A DNA stretch of 15,392 nucleotides from an uncultured Candidatus Rokubacteria bacterium (GCA_963708025.1 CAVPSB010000008.1:1-15392), one strand, 5' to 3'. Positions 2,547-15,392 are shown, counted from the stretch's first letter. Notes: a model not told the origin generated them from the sequence alone. Translations and numbers: made by a program.

Positions 2547-3272
2547 GCCGGCGAGCGGGACGGAGCGAGCCGGGCTGCGCACCGCGCGCCGGCAGGCGTC
2601 GACGACGAGGTCGCCGGACGCGAACAGGGCTTCGACCTCGTCGAGGCGGACCGGGCGGACCACCCCGCCGCGGATCAGGCGCGCCGAGGGCGCCGACAGG
2701 GCACGCCGGACCCGGCCGATCTCGGCGACCAGGGCCGGGATGCCGGCGGCGAGGGCGGCGGCGTGGGCGCGGCCGAGCGCGGTGGCCGCGTCCGTGACCC
2801 GGACGCGGCGGAGCGCGAGAGCTCGGCGCGGGCCACGAGCGGCGGCGGCACGCCGGCGGCGTCGACGTCGACTACGGCGAGCGTCTGCTCGGCGGCCTCG
2901 AGCTCGCCGACGAGGAGCTGGCGGCGGGCGCCGACGAGGCGGGCGTAGAGAGCATTCGCGCGATCACCCAGCGCATCGAGCGCCCGCGCGGCCGCGTCGA
3001 GCGCGCGCACCGGCCCGCTCAGGTCACGCGCGGCGAGGGCGACCTCCGCCTCGGCGACCTGGCAGCGCGCTTGGGCGAGGCGCTCGCGGATGCCGAAGCC
3101 GCGGGCGGCGCGCTGGAGGAGCTTGCGCGCTCGGTCGTAGTCGCCGAGCTGGGCCATGGCGATGCCGCGCAGGGCGAGGGCCGGCGGGTCGTCGCGCAGC
3201 GCGACGCGTTTGAGGGCGCCGAGGGGATCACCGGCCGCCAGCGCGCGCGGCCGAGGCGACGAGGGAGTCCAT
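2547..3272 (-). pseudogene. Frameshifted, 3'-truncated TPR/HTH-type putative transcriptional regulator ('MDSLxxxAARALAAGDPLGALKRVALRDD' family)
   Basis: ATG at 3272 gives MDSLVASAAR, then a 2-bp loss in the (GC)n run at 3241-3248. The frame resumes ALAAGDPLGALKRVALRDDPPALALRGIAMAQLG. A second frameshift near 2820 leads to LALRR..AGIPALVAEI..RLDEVEALFASGDLVVDACRRAVR..SVPLAG, where similarity stops before the expected C-terminal HTH. Confidence 0.8.
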
Positions 3273-3581
3273 GTGTGGGAGGATACATGTCGATCCAGCA
3301 CGGCGTGGTGTCCCCGACGGGCCACGCCTCCGGCGGACTTCTCGCGCGAGTGTACGTTCTGCTTCAACCCGATGGGTTCACGCGGTGATCAGGACCGTAC
3401 CGCAGCGTTACCCATGCACTGGTGAGACGTGAGAAATCTCGTTTCGGGGAATGCCTTCCGATACGGTCCCCGCCAGCACGGGGGCCGTCCGTGAACCGGA
3501 TGTGAATTCAGTCAGATGGTCGTGCTGACTTGGCCACCGCCCGAGACACCACTGCCCGCCGCGAGCGTGCGGCGCGAGCCA

Positions 3582-4160
3582 TCAGGGGGACCGGGGCGGC
3601 GGATCATCCCCGGCACGGGCCTCGGCCAGGTCGTTCCAGACACGTTGGTCGACGAGCTGACCGTCCCGCACGGTGAAACGGTCGACGAATCGGATTCCGG
3701 AGAACGGACTGCCGTCGAGCCACTCTCCCGCGAGCGTCCCGTAGCAGTACACGGCGACCCCATCGTCGCCCGGCGCCTCGTCGAACCGCTCGTAGATCTT
3801 CCTGGCGAATCGGTAGCGCTGCCGGGCCCACTCGACCAGCTCCCCGAGTCCAGAGAAGGTCCGATCCCCGGGAAAGGTCATGCGGAAGCCCTCCGCCAGC
3901 ATCGCCTGGGCCCCCTCCAGGTCCCGCATCTCGACCGCGCGAAGAAAACCCCGCACGAGCTCCGTGGGAGCGAGTGCGTTCGGGTCCCTGGCGCCGAGCA
4001 CCGCCGGCCGGCGCGCGGCGGCGGCCGCACCGAGACCCACGACGACATCCGCCGGCCGGAGGCCGAGTACGTGCCCGACCGCCCCGGCCAGGCTGAGGGC
4101 GAGCCCATCCTGGAGCTGCCGCTCGGACAGCCCCGTCAGGGTCACGGTGACGACCGTCAT
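3582..4160 (-). CDS. SnoaL-like/NTF2-fold protein with a degenerate N-terminal tautomerase-like domain, 192 aa
   Basis: ATG overlaps the lyase stop (ATGA). C-terminal part VRGFLRAVEMRDLEGAQAMLAEGFRMTFPG...VYCYGTLAGEWLDGSPFSGIRFVDRFTVRDGQLVDQRVWNDLAE. N-terminal beta-alpha-beta pattern. Confidence 0.82.
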   Translation of the reverse strand: MTVVTVTLTGLSERQLQDGLALSLAGAVGHVLGLRPADVVVGLGAAAAARRPAVLGARDPNALAPTELVRGFLRAVEMRDLEGAQAMLAEGFRMTFPGDRTFSGLGELVEWARQRYRFARKIYERFDEAPGDDGVAVYCYGTLAGEWLDGSPFSGIRFVDRFTVRDGQLVDQRVWNDLAEARAGDDPPPRSP

Positions 4161-5053
4161 GAGTACTTGGCCCGCGCGTCCTCCGGCACGCCGTAGGACT
4201 CCTCGAGCCGCTGCACCTCGGTCATGCCGAGCAGGTCGAAGAACTCCGTGAAGGACGCCACCTCGCCGACGAGGCCAGCGACGGAGCCGGTGCGGCGAAG
4301 GCACCGGAGGACCTCTCGCGACGCCCGGATCGACGCGAGGATCAGCCAGTTGGGGTAGATGACGAGCTTGAAACCGAGGGCGTCGATCTCGTCGATGCCC
4401 AGGAGGGGGGTCTTGCCGCTCGACGCCATGTTGTAGAGGTGCGGTTTGGGGATCCCAACCGGGATGGCAGCGAGCTGTTCGCGGGTCCTGGGCGCCTCGA
4501 CGAAAATGACGTCGGCCCCTGCCTCCGCGTACCGCCGGGCACGCTCCACCGCGCACTCGAAGCCCTCCACGGCGATGGCGTCGGTCCGTGCTATGAGCAC
4601 CAGGTCACCGTCGAGACGCGCGTCCGTGGCCGCCTTGATCTTGTTCAGCATCTCCTCCGTGGAGATGAGCTGCTTGCCGGCGAGATGCCCGCACCGCTTG
4701 GGCAGGACCTGATCCTCGATGTGCAGCGCCGCTACGCCGGCCTTCTCGTAGGCCTGGACCGTCCGGCGCACGTTCAAGGGTCCTCCGTAGCCGTTGTCGG
4801 CGTCGGCGATGAGGGGGAGCCCGGCGGCGTCGACGATCCGGGCGGCGTTGTCGGCCATCTCCGTCATGGTGAGCAGGCCCACGTCGGGCATCCCCAGCCG
4901 CACGGCGGTCGTGCCGGCGCCGGTCATGTAGAGCGCGTCGAAGCCCTCCTGGGCCACGAGGCGGGCGTTGAGCGCGTCGGCGACGCCGGGAGCCATGACG
5001 ACCCCCGGCCGGGCGAGGAGCTCGCGCAAGCGGGCGGTGGGACGGGCACTCAT
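4157..5053 (-). CDS. Isocitrate lyase/PEP mutase family C-C lyase (methylisocitrate/2,3-dimethylmalate lyase-like), 298 aa
   Basis: Motifs APGVADAL.AR, PLIADADNGYG, HIEDQVLPKRCGHLAGK, IARTDA, AGADVIFVEAP. Confidence 0.92.
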   Translation of the reverse strand: MSARPTARLRELLARPGVVMAPGVADALNARLVAQEGFDALYMTGAGTTAVRLGMPDVGLLTMTEMADNAARIVDAAGLPLIADADNGYGGPLNVRRTVQAYEKAGVAALHIEDQVLPKRCGHLAGKQLISTEEMLNKIKAATDARLDGDLVLIARTDAIAVEGFECAVERARRYAEAGADVIFVEAPRTREQLAAIPVGIPKPHLYNMASSGKTPLLGIDEIDALGFKLVIYPNWLILASIRASREVLRCLRRTGSVAGLVGEVASFTEFFDLLGMTEVQRLEESYGVPEDARAKYS

Positions 5054-5106
5054 GGGCGCACACTCCCGGGTGATGGGTGTCATCGGCCTGGCCGGTCCTC
5101 GTACAC

Positions 5107-5119
5107 CGCTACGGTAGCG
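5107..5119. promoter_or_regulatory. Palindrome CGCTAC-G-GTAGCG overlapping a possible minus-strand -10 (TACCGT); candidate operator
   Basis: Lies in the divergent intergenic region between the lyase and ABC operons. Confidence 0.3.
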
Positions 5120-5200
5120 CAAGTCGGCGGGCGCGGGAACGGGACCGGCGCCCCTCCCACCGCGGGTGACGTTGTCCTCGCTCCGGGACACCCCCTATAC

Positions 5201-5206
5201 TTGACA
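5201..5206 (+). promoter_or_regulatory. Candidate sigma70 -35 box (TTGACA) for the ABC operon
   Basis: Perfect TTGACA in an AT-richer patch ~70 bp upstream of the binding-protein start. No convincing -10. Confidence 0.35.
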
Positions 5207-5272
5207 TCGACATCCGGTGGCCACGACCGACGCAACGAGAGCGGGCAACGAGCCCGAGAAGGATGGCCAAGC

Positions 5273-6502
5273 ATGGACACCCTGGGTAAGGAGTGGAACT
5301 CGCAGATCTCCCGGCGTCAGTTCGTGGTCGCGACGGCGGCGACCGCCGTCGCAGCCTTCCCTGCGGTCCTGAGGGCGCAGGCGGCCCCCGTGAAGGTCGG
5401 CATCATGCACCCCATCACGGGGTTCCTCGCATACTCGGGTAACCAGTGCCGCGCCGGCGCTCTGATGGCGGTGGAGGAGATCAACGCCGGCGGGGGCATC
5501 AAGGCCCTCGGCGGGGCCAAGATCGAGCCCCTGCTCGCCGACAACCAGTCGAAGGTCGACGTCGGCGCGTCGGAGTTCGAGAAGCTGAACGAGGCAGGCA
5601 TCTCGGCCTTCGTGGGACCGTACGCCAGCGCGATCGGCATCTCCACCTCCCAGGCCGCCACGCGCTACGCCCTCCCTCACGTCTGCGACGTCACCGTGTC
5701 GGACCGGGTCGTGGCCAAGGACAAGCCCACCACGTTCCGCTTCAGCCCGGGATATACCTCGATCGCCGAGACGGCGATTTCCCGGCTCGACGAGATCAAC
5801 AAGTCGGCCAGCGGCATCGCCAAGAAAGTCATGATGGTGCACGAGGAGTCGGAATCCGGCGCCGGCACCCAGAAGATGCTCGCCAAGGAGCTGCCGAAGT
5901 ACGGCTTCGACATCGTCGAGACCGTCCTCCACCCGAACCCGACGCGGGACTTCAGCAACATCGTCCTCCGCATCCGCGCGCGCAATCCGGACATCTTGAT
6001 CATCGGCAACTACTACGACGAGTACGTGCTCCTGGTCCGGACGTTGCGTCAGCAGCAGGTGCGGCTCAAGGGCATCTACTCGGTCCTCGGCGGCGGGGCG
6101 TCGAGCTTCCGCTTCGTGCGGGAGTCCGCGGAGGCGGCCCAGTACATCATGGACACCAACCACTGGTACAACCCGCTCAACCCGAAGGCCCTCGACCTGC
6201 GAAAGCGAGTGGAGGCCAAGGGACTCGACTTCTCCTATGAGGTGTATCTGAACTACAACGCGGTCATGTGGCTGGCCGACTCCATCGAGCGGGCGCGCTC
6301 CGCCAAACGGGAGGCGATCGTGGAGGCGCTGGCCACCAGCACCTGGAGCGGCCACATCCTGCCGTACGGGCCGACGAAGATCGTCGACGGCCAGAACACC
6401 GGCGCCACGGCCGCCACGCTGCAGGTCCAGGGGAACGACATCCAGGTGATCCTGCCGAAGCAGTTCGCGTCGGCCAAGATCGTCTTCCCCGCTCCAGCCT
6501 GA
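5273..6502 (+). CDS. ABC transporter substrate-binding protein, branched-chain amino acid (LivJ/K) family, Tat signal, 409 aa
   Basis: Twin-arginine signal SRRQFV...VLRAQA, then VKVGIMHPITG, AVEEINAGGGIKALGG and DFSNIVLRIRARNPD. Confidence 0.92.
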   Translation: MDTLGKEWNSQISRRQFVVATAATAVAAFPAVLRAQAAPVKVGIMHPITGFLAYSGNQCRAGALMAVEEINAGGGIKALGGAKIEPLLADNQSKVDVGASEFEKLNEAGISAFVGPYASAIGISTSQAATRYALPHVCDVTVSDRVVAKDKPTTFRFSPGYTSIAETAISRLDEINKSASGIAKKVMMVHEESESGAGTQKMLAKELPKYGFDIVETVLHPNPTRDFSNIVLRIRARNPDILIIGNYYDEYVLLVRTLRQQQVRLKGIYSVLGGGASSFRFVRESAEAAQYIMDTNHWYNPLNPKALDLRKRVEAKGLDFSYEVYLNYNAVMWLADSIERARSAKREAIVEALATSTWSGHILPYGPTKIVDGQNTGATAATLQVQGNDIQVILPKQFASAKIVFPAPA

Positions 6503-6515
6503 GCCGCTCGATCCT

Positions 6516-6549
6516 CCGGACCCCGGCCTGCCCGCCGGCCGGGGTCCGG
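6516..6549 (+). other. 13-bp perfect GC stem-loop after the binding-protein gene (mRNA stabiliser/attenuator-like)
   Basis: CCGGACCCCGGCC-N8-GGCCGGGGTCCGG; no U-tract. Confidence 0.6.
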
Positions 6550-6578
6550 CCGGGTCGGCCACCCCGTCTGATCCACCC

Positions 6579-7451
6579 ATGCTCGAGCTGACGATCCTGG
6601 CACCCGCCCTGATCAACGGGGCCATGACGGGTGCGGTCTACGCGCTGATCGCCCTCGGCCTGACTCTGGTCTTCGGCGTGCTGCACATCATCAACTTCGC
6701 CCACGGCAGCCTGCTGATGGTCGCCATGTACGGTGTCTTCTTCCTCAACCGGCACCTCGGGCTCGATCCGTACCTGGCCATCCCGATCATGACGGCGGCC
6801 ATGTTCGCGCTCGGCTTCGGGCTCCAGAAGAGCGTCATCAGCAGGGCGAGCCACGGCCGCGACGAGATGATCCTCCTCGTCACGCTCGGCATCTCACTGA
6901 TCATCGAGAACCTGGCGCTCTACCTGTGGTCGGCAGACACCCGCAACGTCCAGCTCTCCTACGGCTTCGCCGTAGTCAACCTCGGGGTGGCACTGGTGTC
7001 GCGCACCCGTCTGATCGCGTTCGCCGCGGCCGTCGTGCTGTGCGCCCTGCTCTGGCTGCTCATCGGCCGCACCGATCTGGGCAAGGCGATCCGCGCCGTC
7101 GCCCGGGAAAAGCAGGGCGCCCGGGTCGTCGGCATCGACGTGGAGCACATCTACGCGATGAGCTTCGGCATCGGCGTCGCATGCCTGGGAGCCGCCGCGT
7201 GTCTCCTGCTCCCCATCTACTACGTCAACCCGCAGGTCGGCAACGTGTTCGTGCTGGTGGCCTTCACCATCGTCGTCCTGGGCGGCATGGGCAGCTTCGT
7301 GGGCGCGTTCGCGGGGGGGATCATCATCGGCATCGCGGAATCGCTGGGCGGGCTGTTCCTGGGCGAGAGCCTGGGCCAGATCGGCGTCTTCCTCATCTTC
7401 ATCGCCATCCTGCTGTTCCGGCCCACCGGTCTCTTCCGGGCAAGGGCGTAG
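6579..7451 (+). CDS. livH: Branched-chain amino acid-type ABC permease, LivH family
   Basis: GAVYALIALGLTLVFGVLHIINFAHG, TDLGKAIRAVA, VVLGGMGS, LLFRPTGLF. Confidence 0.93.
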   Translation: MLELTILAPALINGAMTGAVYALIALGLTLVFGVLHIINFAHGSLLMVAMYGVFFLNRHLGLDPYLAIPIMTAAMFALGFGLQKSVISRASHGRDEMILLVTLGISLIIENLALYLWSADTRNVQLSYGFAVVNLGVALVSRTRLIAFAAAVVLCALLWLLIGRTDLGKAIRAVAREKQGARVVGIDVEHIYAMSFGIGVACLGAAACLLLPIYYVNPQVGNVFVLVAFTIVVLGGMGSFVGAFAGGIIIGIAESLGGLFLGESLGQIGVFLIFIAILLFRPTGLFRARA

Positions 7452-7460
7452 GGGCGGGCG

Positions 7461-8441
7461 GTGGGGAGAAACGCGGTGGTCGGGGCGCTGGCGCTGGGAC
7501 TCGCCCTGGCCGTTCCCCTGATCGTGCAATCGGGCTTCTGGCTGAACCTGCTGACCCTGATGCTGTTCTTCGGCTATCTCGGCGGGTCCTGGAACATCCT
7601 CGGCGGGTACGCTGGCCAGTTCTCGTTCGGCCACGCCGCCTTCTTCGGGACCGGGGCCTACGTCACCGCAATCCTCCAGCTCACCCTCGGCCTGAACCCT
7701 TGGGTCACCATGCTCTTCGCCGCGGCCGGAGGCGCCTCGGTCGGTCTCGTGACCGGCTTCCTCAGCTTCCGCTACGGCCTCCGGGGCAGCTACTTCGCGC
7801 TGATCACGCTGGCCTTTTCCGAGGTCCTCCGCGTCCTGGCCACCACGGCCAAGATCACCAACGGCGGCCAGGGACTGGTCATCCCGTTGAGGACCGGGCT
7901 GGGGAACTTCCAGTTCGCCGGCAAGGCCGGCTACTACTACGTCGCCCTGGCCATGACGCTCATCTCGCTGGCGGCGGCCTGGTGCATCGAGCACTCGCGC
8001 TTCGGCGCCCGCCTCATGGCGGTGCGCGAGAACGAGGACGCGGCGGAAGCCCTGGGGGTGAATGCGTTTGGGCACAAGCTGGCCGCGATCACCATCTCCG
8101 GGATGATGGCCGGCGCCGGTGGCACCTTCTACGTGCAGATGTTCTTCTACGTCGACCCCGCGATCGCGTACGGTCCGGCGATGTCTGTCGAGAGCCTGCT
8201 GGTCTCGATCATCGGCGGGATGGGCACGGTCGCGGGGCCCCTGCTGGGCTCGATCGTCCTGCACCTCGTCGGGGACCTCACCCGGAAGGTGCTGGCGAAC
8301 GCTCCCGGGATCAGTCTCGTCCTCTACGGCGTGCTGCTCATCCTCATCCTCCGGTACCTCCCGAACGGGCTGATCGGGGGCGCCCGGGCCCTGGCCGGAC
8401 GGGTAGGGCTGGGGACGGCCCGATCCGGGTCGACCGGGTGA
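7461..8441 (+). CDS. livM: Branched-chain amino acid-type ABC permease, LivM family
   Basis: WNILGGYAGQFSFGHAAFFGTGAY, LRGSYFALITLAF, AVRENEDAAEALGVN, IIGGMGT..GP. Confidence 0.93.
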   Translation: MGRNAVVGALALGLALAVPLIVQSGFWLNLLTLMLFFGYLGGSWNILGGYAGQFSFGHAAFFGTGAYVTAILQLTLGLNPWVTMLFAAAGGASVGLVTGFLSFRYGLRGSYFALITLAFSEVLRVLATTAKITNGGQGLVIPLRTGLGNFQFAGKAGYYYVALAMTLISLAAAWCIEHSRFGARLMAVRENEDAAEALGVNAFGHKLAAITISGMMAGAGGTFYVQMFFYVDPAIAYGPAMSVESLLVSIIGGMGTVAGPLLGSIVLHLVGDLTRKVLANAPGISLVLYGVLLILILRYLPNGLIGGARALAGRVGLGTARSGSTG

Positions 8442-9205
8442 CCGCGATGCTCCGGGTGTCCGGGCTCCGCAAGAGCTTCGGCGGCCTCCGGGCGGTCGAC
8501 GGCGTCTCGCTCCAGGTGGACGAGGGGCAGATCGTGGCTCTCATCGGACCCAACGGAGCCGGCAAGACGACGCTGTTCGCCATGATCTCGGGGTTCCTCA
8601 GGCCCGACGGCGGGACGGTCGCGTTCCTCGGCGTCGACATCACGGGGCTGGCCCGACACCGGATCTGCCACCTCGGGCTGGTTCGCACGTTCCAGCTGGT
8701 CCAGCCCTTCGCGGGGCTGACCGTGCGCGAGAACATCGCGATCGGCGCCCACGTCCGGCTCGCGCGTCGCCGTGACGCCCTGGCCCGGGCGGCCGAGGTG
8801 GCGCAGCAGGTGCACCTGGCCGGCCAGCTCGACCAGCCGGCGGCTCGCCTGACCGTGGCGGGCCGCAAGCGGCTGGAGCTCGCCCGCGCCCTCGCCACCC
8901 AGCCGAAGCTCCTCCTCCTCGACGAGGTGATGGCCGGGCTCACCATGACCGAGACCGAGGAAGTGGTCCAGATCGTCCGGGCGATCCGGGACTCGGGGGT
9001 GACCGTCCTCCTCATCGAGCACGTCATGCAGGCGGTCATGCGACTGTCCGAGCAGGTCTATGTCCTGAGCGACGGACGGATCATCGCGGAGGGGCGGCCG
9101 GCCGACATCGCCGCCGACCCGAAGGTGATCGAGGCCTACCTCGGGCGCGGGGCCGCCGCGCGGATGGCGGCCGCCGCGGGGACGGAGCCGGCCCGTGGCC
9201 GCTAG
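8438..9205 (+). CDS. livG: ABC ATP-binding protein, LivG family
   Basis: GTG overlapping the livM stop (alternative ATG at 8447). KSFGGLRAVD, GPNGAGKTT, RTFQ, LLLLDEVMAGL, IEHVM, VIEAYLG. Confidence 0.93.
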   Translation: MTAMLRVSGLRKSFGGLRAVDGVSLQVDEGQIVALIGPNGAGKTTLFAMISGFLRPDGGTVAFLGVDITGLARHRICHLGLVRTFQLVQPFAGLTVRENIAIGAHVRLARRRDALARAAEVAQQVHLAGQLDQPAARLTVAGRKRLELARALATQPKLLLLDEVMAGLTMTETEEVVQIVRAIRDSGVTVLLIEHVMQAVMRLSEQVYVLSDGRIIAEGRPADIAADPKVIEAYLGRGAAARMAAAAGTEPARGR

Positions 9206-9911
9206 GCGCCTGCTCGACGTGGAGCGGCTGTCGGCAGGCTACGGGCCCGTGCAGGTGCTGTACGACGTGTCGATCGCGATCGACTCGGGAGAGATCGTGG
9301 CGGTATTGGGCAGCAACGGCGCCGGCAAGTCCACGCTGATCAACGTCGTCACCGGGATCGACCTCCCGCGCGGGGGGACGGTCCGCTTCGATGGCCGCCC
9401 CATCCCGCCGGGGGTGTCGTGGGCGTGCGTGGCGGCCGGCATGGTGCAGGTCCCGGAGGGGCGCCGCATCTTCCCCAACCTCACGGTCCGCGAGAACCTG
9501 GAGCTCGGGAGCTACCGCCGGGGCAAGGCGAACCGCGCGCGCAATCTCGAGCGGGTGACCGGGATCTTCCCGCGTCTGGCCGATCGCATCGGCCAGTCCG
9601 CCGGAACGCTCTCCGGGGGCGAGCAGCAGATGCTCGCGATCGGCCGTGGCCTGATGGCCGAGCCGAGCCTCCTGATCCTGGACGAGCCGTCGCTCGGCCT
9701 GTCTCCCCGTCTGGTCGAGGAGATTTTCGCGCTGATCCAGAGCATGAACCGGGACGGGCTCACGATCCTCCTGGTGGAGCAGAACGTGATGCAGTCCCTG
9801 TCCATCGCGCACCGGGCATACGTCATCGAGAACGGCCGCCTGACGCTGTCGGGCAGCGCCGCCGATCTCATCGAGAACCCCGAGGTGAGACGGTCGTACC
9901 TCGGGCTTTGA
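9195..9911 (+). CDS. livF: ABC ATP-binding protein, LivF family
   Basis: GSNGAGKST, VPEGRRIFPNLTVRENL, LSGGEQQMLAIGRGLM, LDEPSLGL, VEQN. Confidence 0.94.
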   Translation: MAARRLLDVERLSAGYGPVQVLYDVSIAIDSGEIVAVLGSNGAGKSTLINVVTGIDLPRGGTVRFDGRPIPPGVSWACVAAGMVQVPEGRRIFPNLTVRENLELGSYRRGKANRARNLERVTGIFPRLADRIGQSAGTLSGGEQQMLAIGRGLMAEPSLLILDEPSLGLSPRLVEEIFALIQSMNRDGLTILLVEQNVMQSLSIAHRAYVIENGRLTLSGSAADLIENPEVRRSYLGL

Positions 9912-9933
9912 AGACCGGGAGGCAAGGGAGACC

Positions 9934-10608
9934 ATGGAGACATCCGACAAGACGGCCCGGCAGCTATACGAGGAGCTCAAGGCGCGGCCGACCCGTCCCC
10001 GCTTCGGCTTCGGACGGAAGGCGGCGATCGTGAACATCGACCTGCAGAAGTCGTACACGAACGTGGGGGAGTTCGTGACGGCCTACGAGACGCACCCGCG
10101 GCAGGTCGACTACGTCAACCAGATCTCCGATCTGGCCCGGGCCAAGGGCCTGCCGGTCGTCTGGACCCACGTCGCCTACATGGACTCGGGGGAGGACTGC
10201 GGCGTGTGGGGCACCCGAACGGACACCCCGGACTCGCTCCAGAACATCAAGGTGGGCTCCCGCCGGGCCGAGCTCGACGACAGGCTGCACGTAGACCGGG
10301 TCCGGGACGTGATCGTCAACAAGCGCATGGCGTCCGCCCTTCACGAGACTCACCTGGCGTCGCTGTTCATCTGGCACCGGGTCGACACGCTGATCGTGAC
10401 CGGCGGCTCCACGTCGGGCTGCGTGCGGGCCACGGTCGTCGACAGCCTGAGCCACGGGTACCGGACGATCGTGCCGGAGGAGTGCGTGGCCGACAAGCAC
10501 GAGAGCCCCCACTTCGCCAACCTCTACGACATGGCGCTCAAGTATGCCGACGTGGTGCCCGTCGCGGATGTCCTCCGATACCTGCGGGACTACCAGCCCG
10601 GCGCGTGA
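9934..10608 (+). CDS. Isochorismatase-family cysteine amidohydrolase (N-carbamoylsarcosine amidase/maleamate amidohydrolase NicF-like), 224 aa
   Basis: D-K-C triad in NIDLQ, NKRMASA and TGGSTSGCVRATVVD. Also GFGRKAA and H.ANLYDM..KYADV. Confidence 0.9.
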   Translation: METSDKTARQLYEELKARPTRPRFGFGRKAAIVNIDLQKSYTNVGEFVTAYETHPRQVDYVNQISDLARAKGLPVVWTHVAYMDSGEDCGVWGTRTDTPDSLQNIKVGSRRAELDDRLHVDRVRDVIVNKRMASALHETHLASLFIWHRVDTLIVTGGSTSGCVRATVVDSLSHGYRTIVPEECVADKHESPHFANLYDMALKYADVVPVADVLRYLRDYQPGA

Positions 10609-10616
10609 GGGGAACA

Positions 10617-11531
10617 ATGAGGAGCGATCCCGGACTCTACGACTACTGGCCCTACGTCGGTCGCCCGCGGCTCACCTGGCCCGACGGGGCCCGCATCGCC
10701 TTCTGGGTCGCGCCGAACATCGAGTTCTACGAGCTCGATCCGCCCGTCAACCCCACGTGGAAGGGTACGTGGGCCCGTCCGGTCCCCGACGTGCAGGCGT
10801 ACTCCCACCGCGACTACGGGAACCGGGTCGGGGTGTGGCGGATGATGGAGGCGATGGACCGTTACGGCGTGCGGGGCAGCGTCTCGCTGAACGTCGCGCT
10901 CTGCGACCACCATCCGGAGATCATCGAGGCGTGTGCCGCGCGCAACTGGGAGTTCTTCTCGCACGGAATCTACAACACGCGTTTCACCTACGACATGTCG
11001 CGAGATCAGGAGCGGGAGATCATCGAGGATTCCAAGCGGACCGTCAAGAAGTACAGCGGGCAGGACCTGGCCGGCTGGCTGGCCCCGGCGCTGACCAACA
11101 CCGAGCACACGATGGACCTGCTTGCCGAGTGCGGCCTCCAGTACACCTGCGATCTCTTCCACGACGACCAGCCGGCGCCCGTCCACGTTCGGAGCGGCCG
11201 GCTCATCAGCATGCCGTACTCCCTCGAGATGAACGACGTCATCGTCTACAGCTACTACTTCGGGACACCCCGCCACTACCGCGACCTCATCAAGGCGCAG
11301 TTCGACCAGCTGTACGCGGAGGGAGTGCGCTCGGGGACGGTGATGTGCGTCCCGCTCCATCCGTTCCTGGTCGGCCAGCCGCACCGCGTGGAGGCGTTCG
11401 CCGAGGCCCTCGAGTACGTCACGGGCCACGACGGGGTCTGGGTCACGACGGGCCGCGAGATCGCGGACTGGTACTATGCGCACCACTACGACACCGTCGC
11501 GGCGGCCATCGCCGCGCGGGCAGGAGCCTGA
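10617..11531 (+). CDS. Polysaccharide deacetylase (CE4)/PuuE-like hydrolase 1, 304 aa
   Basis: RPRLTWPDGARIAFWVAPNIEFY, RDYGNRVGVWR, SHG, GWLAPAL, DDQP, PYSLEMND, QFDQLYAEG, LHPFLVGQPHR. Confidence 0.9.
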   Translation: MRSDPGLYDYWPYVGRPRLTWPDGARIAFWVAPNIEFYELDPPVNPTWKGTWARPVPDVQAYSHRDYGNRVGVWRMMEAMDRYGVRGSVSLNVALCDHHPEIIEACAARNWEFFSHGIYNTRFTYDMSRDQEREIIEDSKRTVKKYSGQDLAGWLAPALTNTEHTMDLLAECGLQYTCDLFHDDQPAPVHVRSGRLISMPYSLEMNDVIVYSYYFGTPRHYRDLIKAQFDQLYAEGVRSGTVMCVPLHPFLVGQPHRVEAFAEALEYVTGHDGVWVTTGREIADWYYAHHYDTVAAAIAARAGA

Positions 11532-11535
11532 CGCC

Positions 11536-12459
11536 ATGCCGGTGCCGGCGGACTACCTGCGCTACCCTCACCGATCCCGCGGGATGGACCACGACCGGTA
11601 CGAATGGTCGATCCTGTTCCGGCGCAAGCCGGTGGAGTGGCCGGGCCGCGCCCGGATCGCGTTGCTCGTGATGCCGGCGCTCGAGTGGTTCCCCCTCGAC
11701 ATGACCGGGAAGCCGTTCCGCGCTCCCGGAGGGCTCGAGCGTCCCTACCCCGACTACCGCTACTACACGAGCCGCGACTACGGGAACCGGGTCGGCGTGT
11801 TCCGGGTGATGGAGGTGCTGGACGATCTCGAGGTCCGAGCCTCGGTGGCGGTGAATTCGGCGCTGGCGGAGCGTCACCCGTTCCTGATCGACGAGGTGAC
11901 CCGCCGGGAGTGGGAGATCGTCGCCCACGGCGTCCACATGGACCGGCTGCACCACGGCGGCCTGCCGGTCGAGCAGGAGCGCCAGCAGGTGCGGGAGTCG
12001 GTCGGCACGCTGCGCCGGCGGTCCGGCCAGCCGGTCACCGGATGGCTGTCACCGGCCCGGTCGGAGTCGCAGCACACGCTCGACCTGGTGGCCGCCGAGG
12101 GAATCGACTACGTCTGCGACTGGGTCAACGACGACATGCCCTATCCCATTCGCACCGCGCACGGCCCGATCTACGCGATGCCTCACGCCCACGAGATTGA
12201 CGACCGGGTGATCCTGCTCGACCTCCACCATACGGAAGACCAGTTCGTGGAGCAGGTCTCGGACCAGTTCGACGCGCTGTACCGGGAGGCCGGGCGCCAC
12301 GGCGGCCGGATCATGGCCATCACGCTCCATCCCTGGGTGATCGGCCAGCCCTACCGGATCCGCGCCCTGCGGGCCGCCCTCTCGCACGTCCTGCGTCACG
12401 CCGGCGTCTGGTCGGCAACCGCAGCCGAGATCCTCGCCGCGTTCAGGGCCCAGGCCTGA
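11536..12459 (+). CDS. Polysaccharide deacetylase (CE4)/PuuE-like hydrolase 2, 307 aa
   Basis: GMDHDRYEW, WPGRARIAL..ALEWFP, RDYGNRVGVFR, AHG, GWLSPA, NDDMPY, QFDALYRE, LHPWVIGQPYRI. Confidence 0.9.
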   Translation: MPVPADYLRYPHRSRGMDHDRYEWSILFRRKPVEWPGRARIALLVMPALEWFPLDMTGKPFRAPGGLERPYPDYRYYTSRDYGNRVGVFRVMEVLDDLEVRASVAVNSALAERHPFLIDEVTRREWEIVAHGVHMDRLHHGGLPVEQERQQVRESVGTLRRRSGQPVTGWLSPARSESQHTLDLVAAEGIDYVCDWVNDDMPYPIRTAHGPIYAMPHAHEIDDRVILLDLHHTEDQFVEQVSDQFDALYREAGRHGGRIMAITLHPWVIGQPYRIRALRAALSHVLRHAGVWSATAAEILAAFRAQA

Positions 12460-12492
12460 CGGCCGCCGCCCCCTGGCCCGGGCGCCGCGAGA

Positions 12493-13101
12493 TCAGGGCA
12501 GCCAGGGACGCTCGGCCCGGTAGCGCTCCTCGAAGGCGACGATCCGGTCCTCCAGGCCGAGCGTGAGGCCGATCTCGTCCAGCCCCCTGAGCAGCGCCTC
12601 CTTCCAGAAGGCGTCCAGGGTGAAGCGGTGGATCGCACCGTCGGCCGCGATCACGCTCTGGCCCGGCAGGTCGACGACGAGACGGCCGCCGGGCTGGGCG
12701 GCGAGGCTCGAGCGGAGCGCCGCGACCGTGGCCGCCGGCAGGCGCACCGGGAGGAGGCCGTTCTTCAAGCAGTTGTTGTAGAAGATGTCGCTGAAGCTCG
12801 GTGCAATGACGGCCCGGAAGCCGTAGTCGAAGAGGGCATACACCGCCCCTTCCCGCGAGGAGCCGCAGGCGAAGTTCTCGTTGGCGACCAGGATCCGCGC
12901 CGACCGGTACGCCGGCCGGTTGAGGAAGAATTCGGGCCTTTCCGCGCCGCCGTCGTCGAAGCGCAGGTCGTGGAACAGGAAGCGCCCGTACCCGTCCTCT
13001 CGCGGGTACTTCAGGAACCGCGCGGGGACGATCTGATCGGTGTCGACGTTGATCTCGTCGTAGGGCGCGGCGACGGCGTCGAGACGCGTGAACGGTTCCG
13101 T
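12493..13101 (-). CDS. leuD: 3-isopropylmalate dehydratase-family small subunit (LeuD-like), 202 aa, ACG at the start position
   Basis: Open frame (ACG)EPFTRLDAVAAP...NVDTDQIVPARFLK...NFACGSSREGAVYAL..YGFRAVIAPSFSDIFYNNCLKNGLLP...LLRGLDEI. GGAGG lies 9 nt upstream. The ORF track only catches an internal GTG at 12843. Confidence 0.88.
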   Translation of the reverse strand, partial: TEPFTRLDAVAAPYDEINVDTDQIVPARFLKYPREDGYGRFLFHDLRFDDGGAERPEFFLNRPAYRSARILVANENFACGSSREGAVYALFDYGFRAVIAPSFSDIFYNNCLKNGLLPVRLPAATVAALRSSLAAQPGGRLVVDLPGQSVIAADGAIHRFTLDAFWKEALLRGLDEIGLTLGLEDRIVAFEERYRAERPWLP

Positions 13102-13102
13102 C

Positions 13103-14512
13103 TCAGGCCCCCTCCAGCAGGCGCCGCACGTCCGTCAGGCGCCCCGTCACGGCGGCAGCCGCGGCCATGGCCGGGCTCATCAGGTGGGTGCGGGCGCCCC
13201 TGCCCTGTCGACCCGGGAAGTTGCGGTTCGAGGTCGATGCGCAGCGCTCCCCCGCCCCGACCGTGTCACCGTTCATCGCGACGCACATGGAGCAGCCGGC
13301 CTCGCGCCACTCGAAGCCGGCGTCGGTGAAGGCCCGGTGCAGCCCCTCCGCCTCGGCCTGGGCCTTGACCTCCCCGGACCCGGGCACCACGATGGCCGGC
13401 ACCATCGCCTTCCGGCCTCCGAGCACGGCGGCCGCGGCCCGGAGGTCCTCGATCCGGCTGTTCGTGCACGACCCGATGAACACCCGATCGATCGGGAGTC
13501 CGCTGAGCGGAGTGCCCGGTGTCAGCCCCATGTACGCGAGGGCCCGCTCCACCCCGCGCCGTGCGTCGGCGGTGGCAACACTTGCCGGGTCCGGCACCCG
13601 GCCCCCGATGGGCACGCTCTGCCCCGGCGTGATCCCCCAGGTCACCATCGGCGCCATCTCCCCGGCGTCGACGGTCACCTCGGCGTCGAAGCGAGCGCCC
13701 TCGTCGGTCGGAAGGGTGCGCCAGTAGGCCAGAGCCCGGTCCCACAGAGCGCCGGAGGGCGCGAACGGGCGGCCCTCGAGATACCGGTACGTCGTGTCGT
13801 CGGGCGCCACCATGCCGGCCCGGGCCCCCGCCTCGATCGACATGTTGCAGACGGTGAGCCGCTCCTCGACCGACATGGCCGCGATCGCCGGACCGGCGTA
13901 CTCGACGACGTGTCCGACCGCGCCGTCGGTCCCGATCCGGGCGATGATCGCCAGGATGACGTCCTTGGCGCTCACCCCGCGGGGCCGCCTCCCCTCGACG
14001 GTGATGCGCATCACGCGGGGCTTCACCTGCCACAGCGTCTGTGTGGCCAAGACGTGGGCGTTCTCCGACTGGCCGATCCCGAACGCGAAGGCCCCCAGGG
14101 CCCCGTGAGTCGCGGTATGGCTGTCCCCGCAGACGATGACGAGCCCGGGCTGGGTGATGCCCTGCTCGGGACCGACCACGTGCACGATGCCCTGGCGCCG
14201 GTCGCCGAGCGGGAAGAGATGGATCCCTCGACCCGCCACGTTCCGGTCGAATGTCTCGACCATCCGGCGGATCTCGGGCGTCGGGGCGTCCGCGAGCGAC
14301 CGGCTGACCGTCGGCACGTAGTGGTCGGGCGTGCCGTACGTCTGGCCGGGTCGGCGCAGCCCGAGCCCGCGCCGGCCGAGGTCCGCGAAGGCGTGGAACC
14401 CGCCGTCGTGGATGATGTGGCGATCGACGTAGAGCAGGCAGGGCTCGCCGCGCCGAGCCAGCACGACGTGGCTCTCCCAGATCTTGTCGAACAGGGTCCG
14501 CGGTTCCGCCAT
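13103..14512 (-). CDS. leuC: 3-isopropylmalate dehydratase-family large subunit (LeuC-like, [4Fe-4S]), 469 aa; probably a catabolic paralog
   Basis: [71 protein letters not shown]. Confidence 0.93.
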
Positions 14513-14523
14513 CGGTGGCCCGA

Positions 14524-14532
14524 ACTATAGCA
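14524..14532 (-). promoter_or_regulatory. Extended -10 promoter TGcTATAGT for leuCD
   Basis: Minus strand reads GGTGCTATAGTTCGGGCCACCGATG. The -10 ends 11 nt before the ATG, and no SD is visible. Confidence 0.55.
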
Positions 14533-14755
14533 CCGACGGCGGACCGCCCGCCGAGTCGCCCATCCGTCTCGTCGTGCGTTCTGGCACTTGCCGCGTCTGG
14601 TGCTTGGGCGTGCTGACCGATCACAACGGATGCGGCCAGATGATTCAATCAAGGTCTGGTCAAAGAGCACGAGAGCGGACCACGTCGCTTCGACCTTGGC
14701 ATGTGGCTCTAATGAATGCCCGGATCCCGCAGTCGTTGAAGGGCGAGCCGAGTCG

Positions 14756-14821
14756 CCCGCCCGCTCGATCGCCGGCACTATCACCGCCGCCTTCGCGAGG
14801 CCGACGTGGGCCACCGCGGCG
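14756..14821 (-). repeat. Inverted 66-bp copy of 1243-1308 (fragment of the ORF902 gene)
   Basis: Reverse complement matches 1243-1308 at 64/66 nt; encodes AAVAHVGLAKAAVIVPAIERAG versus AAVAQVGLAKAAVMVPAIERAG. Confidence 0.93.
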
Positions 14822-14894
14822 ACCTCCAACGGATCGGGACGCGTCGGGAGCCCCGAGGGGTCGACCGACGGCCGGGCAGCCCACGGGCTACGCC

Positions 14895-14912
14895 TTTGCC
14901 CACGTGGGCAAA
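14895..14912. repeat. Perfect 18-bp palindrome TTTGCCCACGTGGGCAAA (copy 3)
   Basis: Identical to 1705-1722; 25 bp upstream of the ATG at 14938. Confidence 0.95.
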
Positions 14913-14937
14913 ACGGGCACGGAGCCGAAGCGGGGCC

Positions 14938-15312
14938 ATGCTGAAGCGACGCGTACGGGTTGGGGCGGCCGCCCGTCGCCGGGTCGTCGCTGGCGGCCCC
15001 CGCGCCATCGGACGGCCCGCGGCGACCCGGGCCGAGTGGGCCGAGATCCGGATCCAGGTATTGGCTCGGGCGTCGTGGACCTGTCAGGCGTGCGGGGTCT
15101 GGGGCCGCCGCCTGGATGTGCACCATGTGATCAAGCGGGCCCGGGGCGGCTCCGACTTCGACCTCGACCAGCTGGTCGCGTTGTGCCGCGCCTGCCATGA
15201 GCAGACGGACGCCCCCTCCGACCGCGGGCGCCTGGTCGTCACACCGCTCGGGGGCGGGCAGTTCACGTGCGAGGTCGTGCAGCGGGCGGCGAAATGGGCG
15301 ACGCGATCGTGA
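14938..15312 (+). CDS. Small Zn-finger HNH endonuclease, second intact copy, 124 aa
   Basis: 7 nucleotide differences from 1749-2123 (4 synonymous; V->I, V->A, P->R); all Cys/His motifs retained. Confidence 0.88.
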   Translation: MLKRRVRVGAAARRRVVAGGPRAIGRPAATRAEWAEIRIQVLARASWTCQACGVWGRRLDVHHVIKRARGGSDFDLDQLVALCRACHEQTDAPSDRGRLVVTPLGGGQFTCEVVQRAAKWATRS

Positions 15313-15336
15313 CGTCGCCGGATCGGGTGGCGGCGG

Positions 15337-15354
15337 TTTGCCCATGTGGGCAAA
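15337..15354. repeat. 18-bp palindrome TTTGCCCATGTGGGCAAA (copy 4)
   Basis: Identical to 2148-2165; followed by the start of another degenerate HNH copy (AGGCTGAGGCGAC). Confidence 0.92.
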
Positions 15355-15392
15355 ACGGGGACCGAGGTAGACCGGGGCCAGGCTGAGGCGAC

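Follow-up and report, generated by a model that had tools for sequence, protein, structure and literature searches.

A horizontally transferred gene cluster in a Rokubacteria genome as a candidate route for cyclic imide catabolism

What does a bacterium degrade with a Liv-type importer, two allantoinase-like hydrolases, a cysteine amidase, a LeuCD-like hydratase and a C-C lyase encoded side by side? The question is raised by a 15,392-nucleotide stretch of DNA (the window) from an uncultured Candidatus Rokubacteria bacterium (GCA_963708025.1, CAVPSB010000008.1:1-15392; genome G000), in which 12 genes lie in three transcription units between positions 3582 and 14512. The original prediction, made from the sequence alone, had read this gene set as a pathway for ring opening, deamidation, hydration and C-C cleavage of an alkyl-maleimide or a related compound. 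The gene content it listed, including the lack of any oxidoreductase gene in 3582-14512 in Pfam and NCBIfam searches, was borne out by codon-position G+C plots, lists of open reading frames (ORFs) and family searches, and the order of steps it proposed fits the families found. In our estimate the chances are about evenly balanced that the cluster encodes a catabolic route of this kind, comprising import of a ring, its opening, release of ammonia, hydration and C-C cleavage; the order of the reactions, every substrate and the part played by a tautomerase-SnoaL fusion protein are what we infer.

In the proposed route, a Tat-exported Liv-type binding protein together with LivHMGF would take up a small, probably carboxylated, nitrogen-containing ring compound, most likely a cyclic imide of the substituted maleimide or succinimide type. 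A metal-independent PuuE-like hydrolase, with CE4a as the catalytic and CE4b as the auxiliary subunit, would open the ring to a half-amide, from which the Asp-Lys-Cys amidase Iso would free ammonia to leave a cis-unsaturated branched di- or tricarboxylate (an alkyl-maleate). A dedicated LeuCD paralogue would then hydrate this acid to a 2-hydroxy acid, and a lyase resembling PrpB and dimethylmalate lyase would split the product into pyruvate and a second acid. The constant presence of an amidase beside the CE4 pair would be explained by the opening of an imide ring to a half-amide, and the presence of a hydratase and a lyase by the cis-unsaturated acid that deamidation would yield.

Transfer and spread of the cluster

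The G+C content of the window is about 70%, which gives many long spurious ORFs, and genes were therefore placed by codon-position G+C and then by searches of Pfam and NCBIfam, with structural relatives taken from matches in the PDB. The ORFs 3582-4556, 4439-6502 and 10206-11531 extend beyond the real starts. G+C at third codon positions is 0.90-0.94 in the called frames, and the ratio of nonsynonymous to synonymous change (pN/pS), calculated between the window genes and their copies in genome G013, lies between 0.05 and 0.55 across all 12 genes, so that these are real genes under purifying selection and not chance ORFs. A plus-strand operon (5273-12459) encodes the binding protein, LivH, LivM, LivG, LivF, Iso, CE4a and CE4b; the minus-strand pair of the lyase and the SnoaL protein (5083-3582) is divergent from it, and leuC-leuD (14512-12493, minus strand) converges on it. 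The gene set is thus a cluster rather than one operon, its three units running in three directions. Scans of the window for Rfam families and tRNAs returned no match.

The 11.3-kb block 3367-14728 shows 96.4% nucleotide identity (blastn) to locus L021 of G013, which belongs to another genus of the same family, and the flanks do not match. Since the housekeeping leuCD regions of the two genomes are just 74% identical, the block is a recently transferred island carrying the whole cluster. A search of 40 genomes of host relatives, all of the host's own family or order, turned up the complete cluster in G013 alone. The host is a Methylomirabilota-like (Rokubacteria) genome, and the LeuC tree described below points to a proteobacterial source. 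Recent transfer into such a genome means that the module crosses phyla as a unit.

Linkage between the genes was counted in the best 80 (71-83% identical Iso, several phyla) of 587 related loci, one genome being taken per species. At least 5 kb is available on each side of Iso in 39 of the 80 loci, which form the well-flanked subset, and many of the others are truncated. The CE4a-CE4b pair stands beside Iso in 62 of the 80 loci and in 36 of the 39 well-flanked ones, an aconitase-family hydratase in 28 (18 well-flanked), an ICL-family lyase in 27 (17 well-flanked) and hydratase and lyase together in 17 (12 well-flanked). Co-conservation of leuCD and the lyase with the hydrolases, on which the original prediction had staked its case, is therefore found in many unrelated genomes. 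The linked hydratases are of two kinds, 21 of LeuC type (51-74% identical to that of the window) and seven of the archaeal HacA or "LeuD-DmdB" type, and the existence of two lineages speaks for independent recruitment of the same putative activity. Tight co-directional operons also occur, in the order ICL-LeuC-LeuD-Iso-CE4-CE4 in L045 and GntR-hydratase-ICL-Iso-CE4-CE4 in L036 and L044.

The CE4 pair, the amidase and the imported compound

CE4a (10617-11531, plus strand, 304 aa) and its paralogue CE4b (11536-12459, plus strand, 307 aa) are 39% identical to each other, match Pfam Polysacc_deac_1 and have PuuE as their best NCBIfam match. PuuE is also the best solved relative of both (3cl6; E 4e-29 for CE4a and 2.3e-23 for CE4b). 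We aligned 30 CE4a and 29 CE4b orthologues and found that E36, H116 and H248 of CE4a, the equivalents of Glu36, His126 and His259 of PuuE, are invariant in all 30, whereas the CE4b orthologues keep the equivalent of Glu36 in 20, of His126 in 16 and of His259 in 22 of the 29 sequences, the CE4b of the window itself retaining all three. CE4b is marked by an N-terminal arm and a DW.NDD loop that are invariant across its 29 orthologues. Prediction of a CE4a-CE4b complex gave an ipSAE of 0.82 against 0.00 for the best control. That level is attained in 58 of 80 solved complexes and in 2 of 110 mismatched pairs; contact agreement between runs was at least 95% and partner pLDDT at least 93. In the modelled interface the invariant YS.RDYGNR loop of CE4a and residues beside its catalytic Glu and His face the arm and loop of CE4b. 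The contrast in residue conservation, the complex model and the invariable pairing of the genes suggest that CE4a and CE4b probably form one heteromer in which CE4a is catalytic and CE4b auxiliary. Two sequential CE4 steps were considered and are less likely on the same conservation and model. The earlier description of two PuuE-like CE4 hydrolases thus holds in that both match PuuE best, and gives way in that two subunits of one enzyme are likelier than two enzymes.

The proposed catalytic Glu and two His of PuuE allantoinase (3cl6, 1z7a) are present in CE4a, and the Asp-His-His metal triad is absent. One report (PMC11424739) describes the PuuE-type site as a Glu-His-Trp triad that replaces the Asp-His-His metal site, joined by a His of the LH motif, and describes BpIH of Burkholderia phytofirmans, a PuuE-like CE4 enzyme 61% identical to PuuE, as hydrolysing cyclic imides. 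In Aspergillus nidulans, as set out in a second report (PMC9304392), HxnM is an imidase of CE4/PuuE-like fold, followed by the amidase HxnN. Action of PuuE-like CE4 enzymes on cyclic imides, assumed in the original prediction, is thus documented in the two sources, and in both systems a PuuE/HpPgdA-like CE4 hydrolase opens the imide and a separate amidase frees ammonia, as we propose here. The island differs from these systems in that two paralogues, conserved as a pair and one of them with degenerate catalytic residues, make up its hydrolase, and in that its putative amidase is an isochorismatase-family cysteine enzyme linked to a hydratase and a C-C lyase. Blastobacter sp. A17p-4 is likewise said to metabolise cyclic imides through an imidase and then a half-amidase.

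Iso (9934-10608, plus strand, 224 aa) is an isochorismatase-family cysteine amidase by its Pfam match (97.9 bits). Its triad of Asp (NIDLQ), Lys (VNKRM) and Cys (TSGCVRAT) aligns with those of 4l07, 26st, 1nba and 3ot4. Closest among the solved structures are 4l07 and its Cys-to-Ala form 4l08 (E 3.8e-32), which we take to be a maleamate amidase, the PDB title giving just 'hydrolase, isochorismatase family'; then come the N-carbamoylsarcosine amidohydrolases 26st (1.1e-31) and 1nba (3.3e-29), and 3ot4/3uao (1.8e-20). The last of these is NicF maleamate amidohydrolase, according to PMC5806882. The NicF/Ami maleamate and N-carbamoylsarcosine amidohydrolases (3uao, 4l07/4l08, 1nba, 26st) share fold and Asp-Lys-Cys triad with Iso and act on short carboxylates with a terminal primary amide; the likeness is one of family (77-115 bits) and is equal for both activities. 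The label "NicF-like" given in the original prediction is therefore no better based than N-carbamoylsarcosine-amidase-like (3.8e-32 against 1.1e-31). The dioxygenase and deformylase of the aerobic nicotinate pathway have no counterpart beside Iso, and Pfam and NCBIfam searches of the window found no gene for 2,5-dihydroxypyridine dioxygenase, deformylase or maleate isomerase.

The importer consists of a periplasmic binding protein (5273-6502, 409 aa, Peripla_BP_6, 165 bits), the LivH-like (6579-7451, BPD_transp_2, 121.8 bits) and LivM-like (7461-8441, BPD_transp_2, 144.3 bits) permeases and the LivG-like (8447-9205) and LivF-like (9195-9911) ATPases, all on the plus strand; the ATPases match ABC_tran and BCA_ABC_TP_C as a LivG/LivF pair, one with the BCA_ABC_TP_C tail, so that the set has the composition of the HAAT/Liv family. 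The binding protein bears an SRRQF twin-arginine signal. Its best match, PDB 8wch, reaches only E 1.6e-29 and names no ligand, and the PDB search found no liganded close relative. Other loci have importers of the TRAP, TctC and MFS types, whose cargo is usually an anion or carboxylate. They hint that the substrate is an anion and not a neutral compound, which weakens the alkyl-maleimide of the original prediction.

Several observations on this part of the island weigh against the proposed route. Where PuuE has the Trp of its triad, CE4a has Asn (in all 30 orthologues) and CE4b has Met (in all 29); the Glu, the His and the LH-motif His occur in CE4a and CE4b alike. With the Trp replaced, the reaction may not follow the PuuE mechanism. 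PuuE homotetramers are solved structures, and the high heteromer score may be a matter of mere likeness to them. Iso is as close to N-carbamoylsarcosine amidohydrolase as to 4l07, and a gene resembling allantoin and hydantoin racemases (5lfd, 1.6e-17) adjoins the Iso-CE4a-CE4b trio in 16 of the 80 loci. Together with the TRAP, TctC and MFS transporters, the likeness of Iso to N-carbamoylsarcosine amidohydrolase and the racemase neighbours make three points that count against a simple alkyl-maleimide. We considered whether this neighbour from the Asp/Glu-racemase family, which has no match in NCBIfam, could be a maleate isomerase; this was ruled out, its best solved relatives being allantoin and hydantoin racemases.

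The racemase-like neighbours would fit a hydantoinase-type route, in which CE4a and CE4b would open a 5-substituted hydantoin or a related cyclic ureide in the way that PuuE opens allantoin, and Iso would act as an N-carbamoyl-amino-acid amidohydrolase releasing an amino acid, CO2 and NH3. That CE4a and CE4b both find their best structural match in PuuE allantoinase agrees with this alternative, as do the matches of Iso to 26st and 1nba and the aminotransferase genes near the trio in 10 of the 80 loci, all from a single marine alphaproteobacterial lineage. The island, however, has no aminotransferase, ammonia-lyase or amino-acid dehydrogenase that could pass an amino acid on to LeuCD and the lyase, and the hydratases and lyases linked to the trio across the loci act on unsaturated or hydroxy acids. 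The CE4 pair is also far from PuuE itself: its scores of 125.5 (CE4a) and 118.9 bits (CE4b) fall well below the family cut-off of 424.6 (TIGR03212), the triad Trp is missing from both proteins, and purine-catabolism genes are not nearby. We regard a hydantoin-type ureide as unlikely, and it stays the main rival because of the racemase-like neighbours; a cyclic imide is the favoured substrate.

CE4 pairs at 59-64% identity are present in four of the 40 host relatives (G020, G009, G012 and G018) without Iso, lyase or LeuCD, a further point against the proposed route. Their neighbours, as in G020, are AsnC, TauD, GFO/IDH/MocA and FAD-oxidoreductase genes. These pairs are uninformative about leuCD; the other contexts in the host and its relatives suggest that the heteromeric CE4 module also serves for compounds of other kinds. 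A CE4 match was obtained in 32 of 41 genomes, a tally that takes in the unpublished genome G038 and on which none of our conclusions depends. Additional tandem CE4 pairs were seen on contig C13 of G000 (548240-550017) and in host relatives (L022, L023, L024, L025).

The hydratase, the lyase and the fusion protein

The hydratase is encoded by leuC (13103-14512, minus strand, 469 aa) and leuD (12493-13098, minus strand, about 201 aa), and the ICL/PEP-mutase-family lyase (308 aa; PEP_mutase, 164 bits) by 4157-5083 on the minus strand, with an alternative ATG start at 5053. The best NCBIfam model of the lyase is prpB (TIGR02317), whose cut-off of 354.4 bits is above its score of 293.8. Its closest structures are oxaloacetate acetylhydrolase (3lye), the fungal 2,3-dimethylmalate lyase (3fa3) and petal death protein (1zlp), methylisocitrate lyases being farther. 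K(K/R)CGH is the active-site loop with the catalytic Cys in the C-C lyase branch of the ICL/PEP-mutase family, and the lyase has KRCGH at residue 129, the motif recurring as K(R/K)CGH in 27 of 27 linked lyases.

The same pairing closes two known pathways. Nicotinate fermentation in Eubacterium barkeri ends with dimethylmaleate hydratase (DmdAB) and 2,3-dimethylmalate lyase, that is, with an aconitase-family two-subunit hydratase and an ICL-family lyase giving pyruvate and a short acid; its upstream steps are wholly different, and the hydratase of the window is of LeuCD type and not DmdAB, while seven other loci use the archaeal-type 'LeuD/DmdB family' hydratase. The 2-methylcitrate cycle ends with hydration of a cis-unsaturated tricarboxylate followed by retro-aldol cleavage to pyruvate, the chemistry proposed here, and differs in that the lyase of the island falls under the prpB cut-off and prpC, prpD and acnD are not in the island.

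Downstream of the lyase, its stop codon overlapped by the ATG (ATGA), lies a gene (3582-4160, minus strand) for a 192-aa protein which the original prediction called a SnoaL protein. The SnoaL_2 domain is indeed there (Pfam), and the protein is really a fusion, its first ~60 residues forming a tautomerase-like domain; it matches PDB 9mua, a 'Tautomerase' of 186 residues, at E 7.8e-40 and finds no match in NCBIfam. An N-terminal catalytic proline, Pro1, is the defining residue of tautomerases. Codon 2 of the window gene (4155-4157, minus strand) is ACG for Thr, so that the N-terminus reads MTVVTVTL in the window and in G013, against MPV(V/I)(S/T)ITL in nine of nine orthologues (11 matches, nine with an N-terminus). 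G000 and G013 have the same SnoaL core, whereas their tautomerase halves differ by one indel and some 14 substitutions, and the tautomerase domain looks to be in decay.

The loss of Pro1 weighs against a complete working route, and so does the start of leuD. The codon at 13096-13098 (minus strand) is ACG, common to the window and G013, where ATG is aligned in 17 of 18 orthologous loci; ACG-GAA-CCG-TTC stands in place of the ATG-GAG-CCN-TTC (MEPF...) of the orthologues, which leaves leuD without an ATG, GTG or TTG start. Nor was a regulator gene found in the island. The island could on this ground be partly decayed in this host, with the hydratase branch not made, the fusion protein inactive and only import and deamidation at work. 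Both changes being shared with G013 and the uneven divergence of the fusion protein would agree with decay, as would the pN/pS values of LeuD (0.34) and the fusion protein (0.55), which are above those of the other enzymes: 0.08 for LeuC, 0.10 for Iso, 0.11 for CE4a, 0.16 for the ICL-family lyase and 0.23 for CE4b. LivG stands at 0.41, and the binding protein, both permeases and LivF fall with LeuC, Iso, CE4a and the lyase in the range 0.05-0.16. However, LeuC, which would be useless without LeuD, is the most constrained of the island's enzymes; the pN/pS of LeuD is below 1, and leuD has neither a stop codon nor a frameshift. The ACG, moreover, lies 1 nt past the leuC stop and is preceded by a strong Shine-Dalgarno-like run, GGAGGGGG, which would be a setting friendly to re-initiation. 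Given this constraint on LeuC, coupled initiation at ACG probably still yields LeuD, and we consider a dead hydratase branch doubtful.

Neither hydratase nor lyase stands beside Iso in 42 of the 80 loci or in 16 of the 39 well-flanked ones, which also counts against the proposed route as a fixed whole. Because of these 16 loci, the hydratase-lyase pair is one of several downstream modules and not a constant part of the system. Two functions might then merely travel together, the importer, Iso and the CE4 pair scavenging nitrogen from an amide or a ring compound, and LeuCD and the lyase breaking down a branched organic acid of no relation to that compound. The three separate transcription units of the window would fit such an arrangement, as would the quite different contexts of the CE4 pair in host relatives. 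Against it, lyase, hydratase, Iso and CE4 pair are joined in tight co-directional operons in several lineages unrelated to one another, not only in L045, L036 and L044 but also in L040, L064, L071 and L075, two hydratase lineages have apparently been recruited independently beside the same trio, and the entire 11.3-kb block moved as a unit. We give this arrangement only a small chance of being right and keep to one route in which the hydratase and lyase would process the product of Iso.

Finally, leuCD might be an ordinary leucine-biosynthesis pair set beside a hydrolase operon by chance, since both subunits pass the NCBIfam leuC and leuD cut-offs (663.4 bits against 560.25 for LeuC and 222.6 against 116.25 for LeuD), but this explanation is wholly improbable and the pair is ruled out as the housekeeping copy by the following comparisons. 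Contig C28 of the genome carries another leuCD, whose LeuC is typical of the lineage, being 91-96% identical to proteins named Rokuibacteriota or Methylomirabilota by their sources and to one from Acidoferrum. In a LeuC tree of 34 rows the window copy nests among cluster-linked Betaproteobacteria copies with 99% SH-aLRT support, apart from the C28 copy, which groups with "second copies". At least one additional LeuC copy is present in each of the five other carrier genomes examined. By these sequence comparisons the leuCD of the window is a dedicated paralogue and not the housekeeping copy.

Reach of the module, possible substrates and flanking DNA

The Iso family is large, with thousands of homologues at 80-90% identity, and Iso is 71-90% identical across Alpha-, Beta- and Gammaproteobacteria and metagenome-assembled genomes labelled Methylomirabilota, Gemmatimonadota and Thermomicrobiales. 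These thousands of proteins and the 587 loci point to an abundant environmental substrate. Carriers of the cluster are lake, marine and soil bacteria. Of the words sampled from the stretch, a fraction of 0.27-0.42 recurs in soil and sediment metagenomes from at least nine studies, and only 0.05-0.09 in three RNA runs. A family-III CoA-transferase is found in six loci, its best model being succinate-glutarate CoA-transferase (457 bits, cut-off 750), and an acyl-CoA dehydrogenase adjoins it in three of the six; these loci fit a dicarboxylate such as glutarate as a possible second product.

A more specific version of the route may be put forward, with considerable doubt. The trio and the hydratase-lyase pair would form a widespread, undescribed bacterial route that mineralises monopyrrole imides arising from oxidative or photochemical breakdown of haem, chlorophyll or bilins. 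Ring opening would fall to a CE4 imidase of a new, heteromeric kind, one subunit being catalytic and the other pseudo-catalytic; with hematinic acid imide, for example, the resulting 2-methyl-3-(2-carboxyethyl)maleate would be hydrated and cleaved to pyruvate and glutarate. The TRAP and TctC transporters, the CoA-transferase in six loci and the lake, marine and soil carriers are hints only in this direction.

The families involved and the logic of imidase and half-amidase and of hydratase and lyase are already known; no account of their combination, of the putative CE4 heteromer or of the substrate was found in the literature searched. That literature, main texts with few subscription journals, likewise yielded nothing on the cluster, on a function for Iso, on genes for maleimide catabolism in bacteria or on PDB 9mua. 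Knowing the substrate would close a gap in the picture of how dissolved organic nitrogen is turned over. It would also establish a new, heteromeric version of the CE4/PuuE fold and put right the routine annotations "leuC/leuD", "methylisocitrate lyase" and "polysaccharide deacetylase".

In some Comamonadaceae-type loci (L068, L083, L088, L099, L104) a third CE4 and a second isochorismatase gene adjoin the trio, and this mini-module is accompanied by PhyH, PrpD-like and extra SnoaL genes.

The DNA around the island contains repeated elements. Two HNH-endonuclease genes (Pfam HNH; 1624-2123 and 14806-15312) form a direct repeat with a spacing of 13,190 nt; their identity is 98% over 300 nt and 90% over 124 nt. 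Between them lie the island and some 1.2 kb of G000-specific DNA. Next to the HNH genes is an inverted repeat of 69 nt (1243-1311 and 14753-14821, 96% complementary). A 63-nt element occurs in four copies (1685-1747, 2128-2190, 14875-14937 and 15317-15379), one on each side of each HNH gene, and is centred on the perfect 18-nt palindrome TTTGCCCACGTGGGCAAA or its C-to-T variant. Left of the island are a PD-(D/E)XK nuclease-family gene (142-912) and a TPR-repeat gene (2675-3367); between them, the region 900-2700 gives mixed codon-phase signals, with the HNH gene as its sole clear gene.

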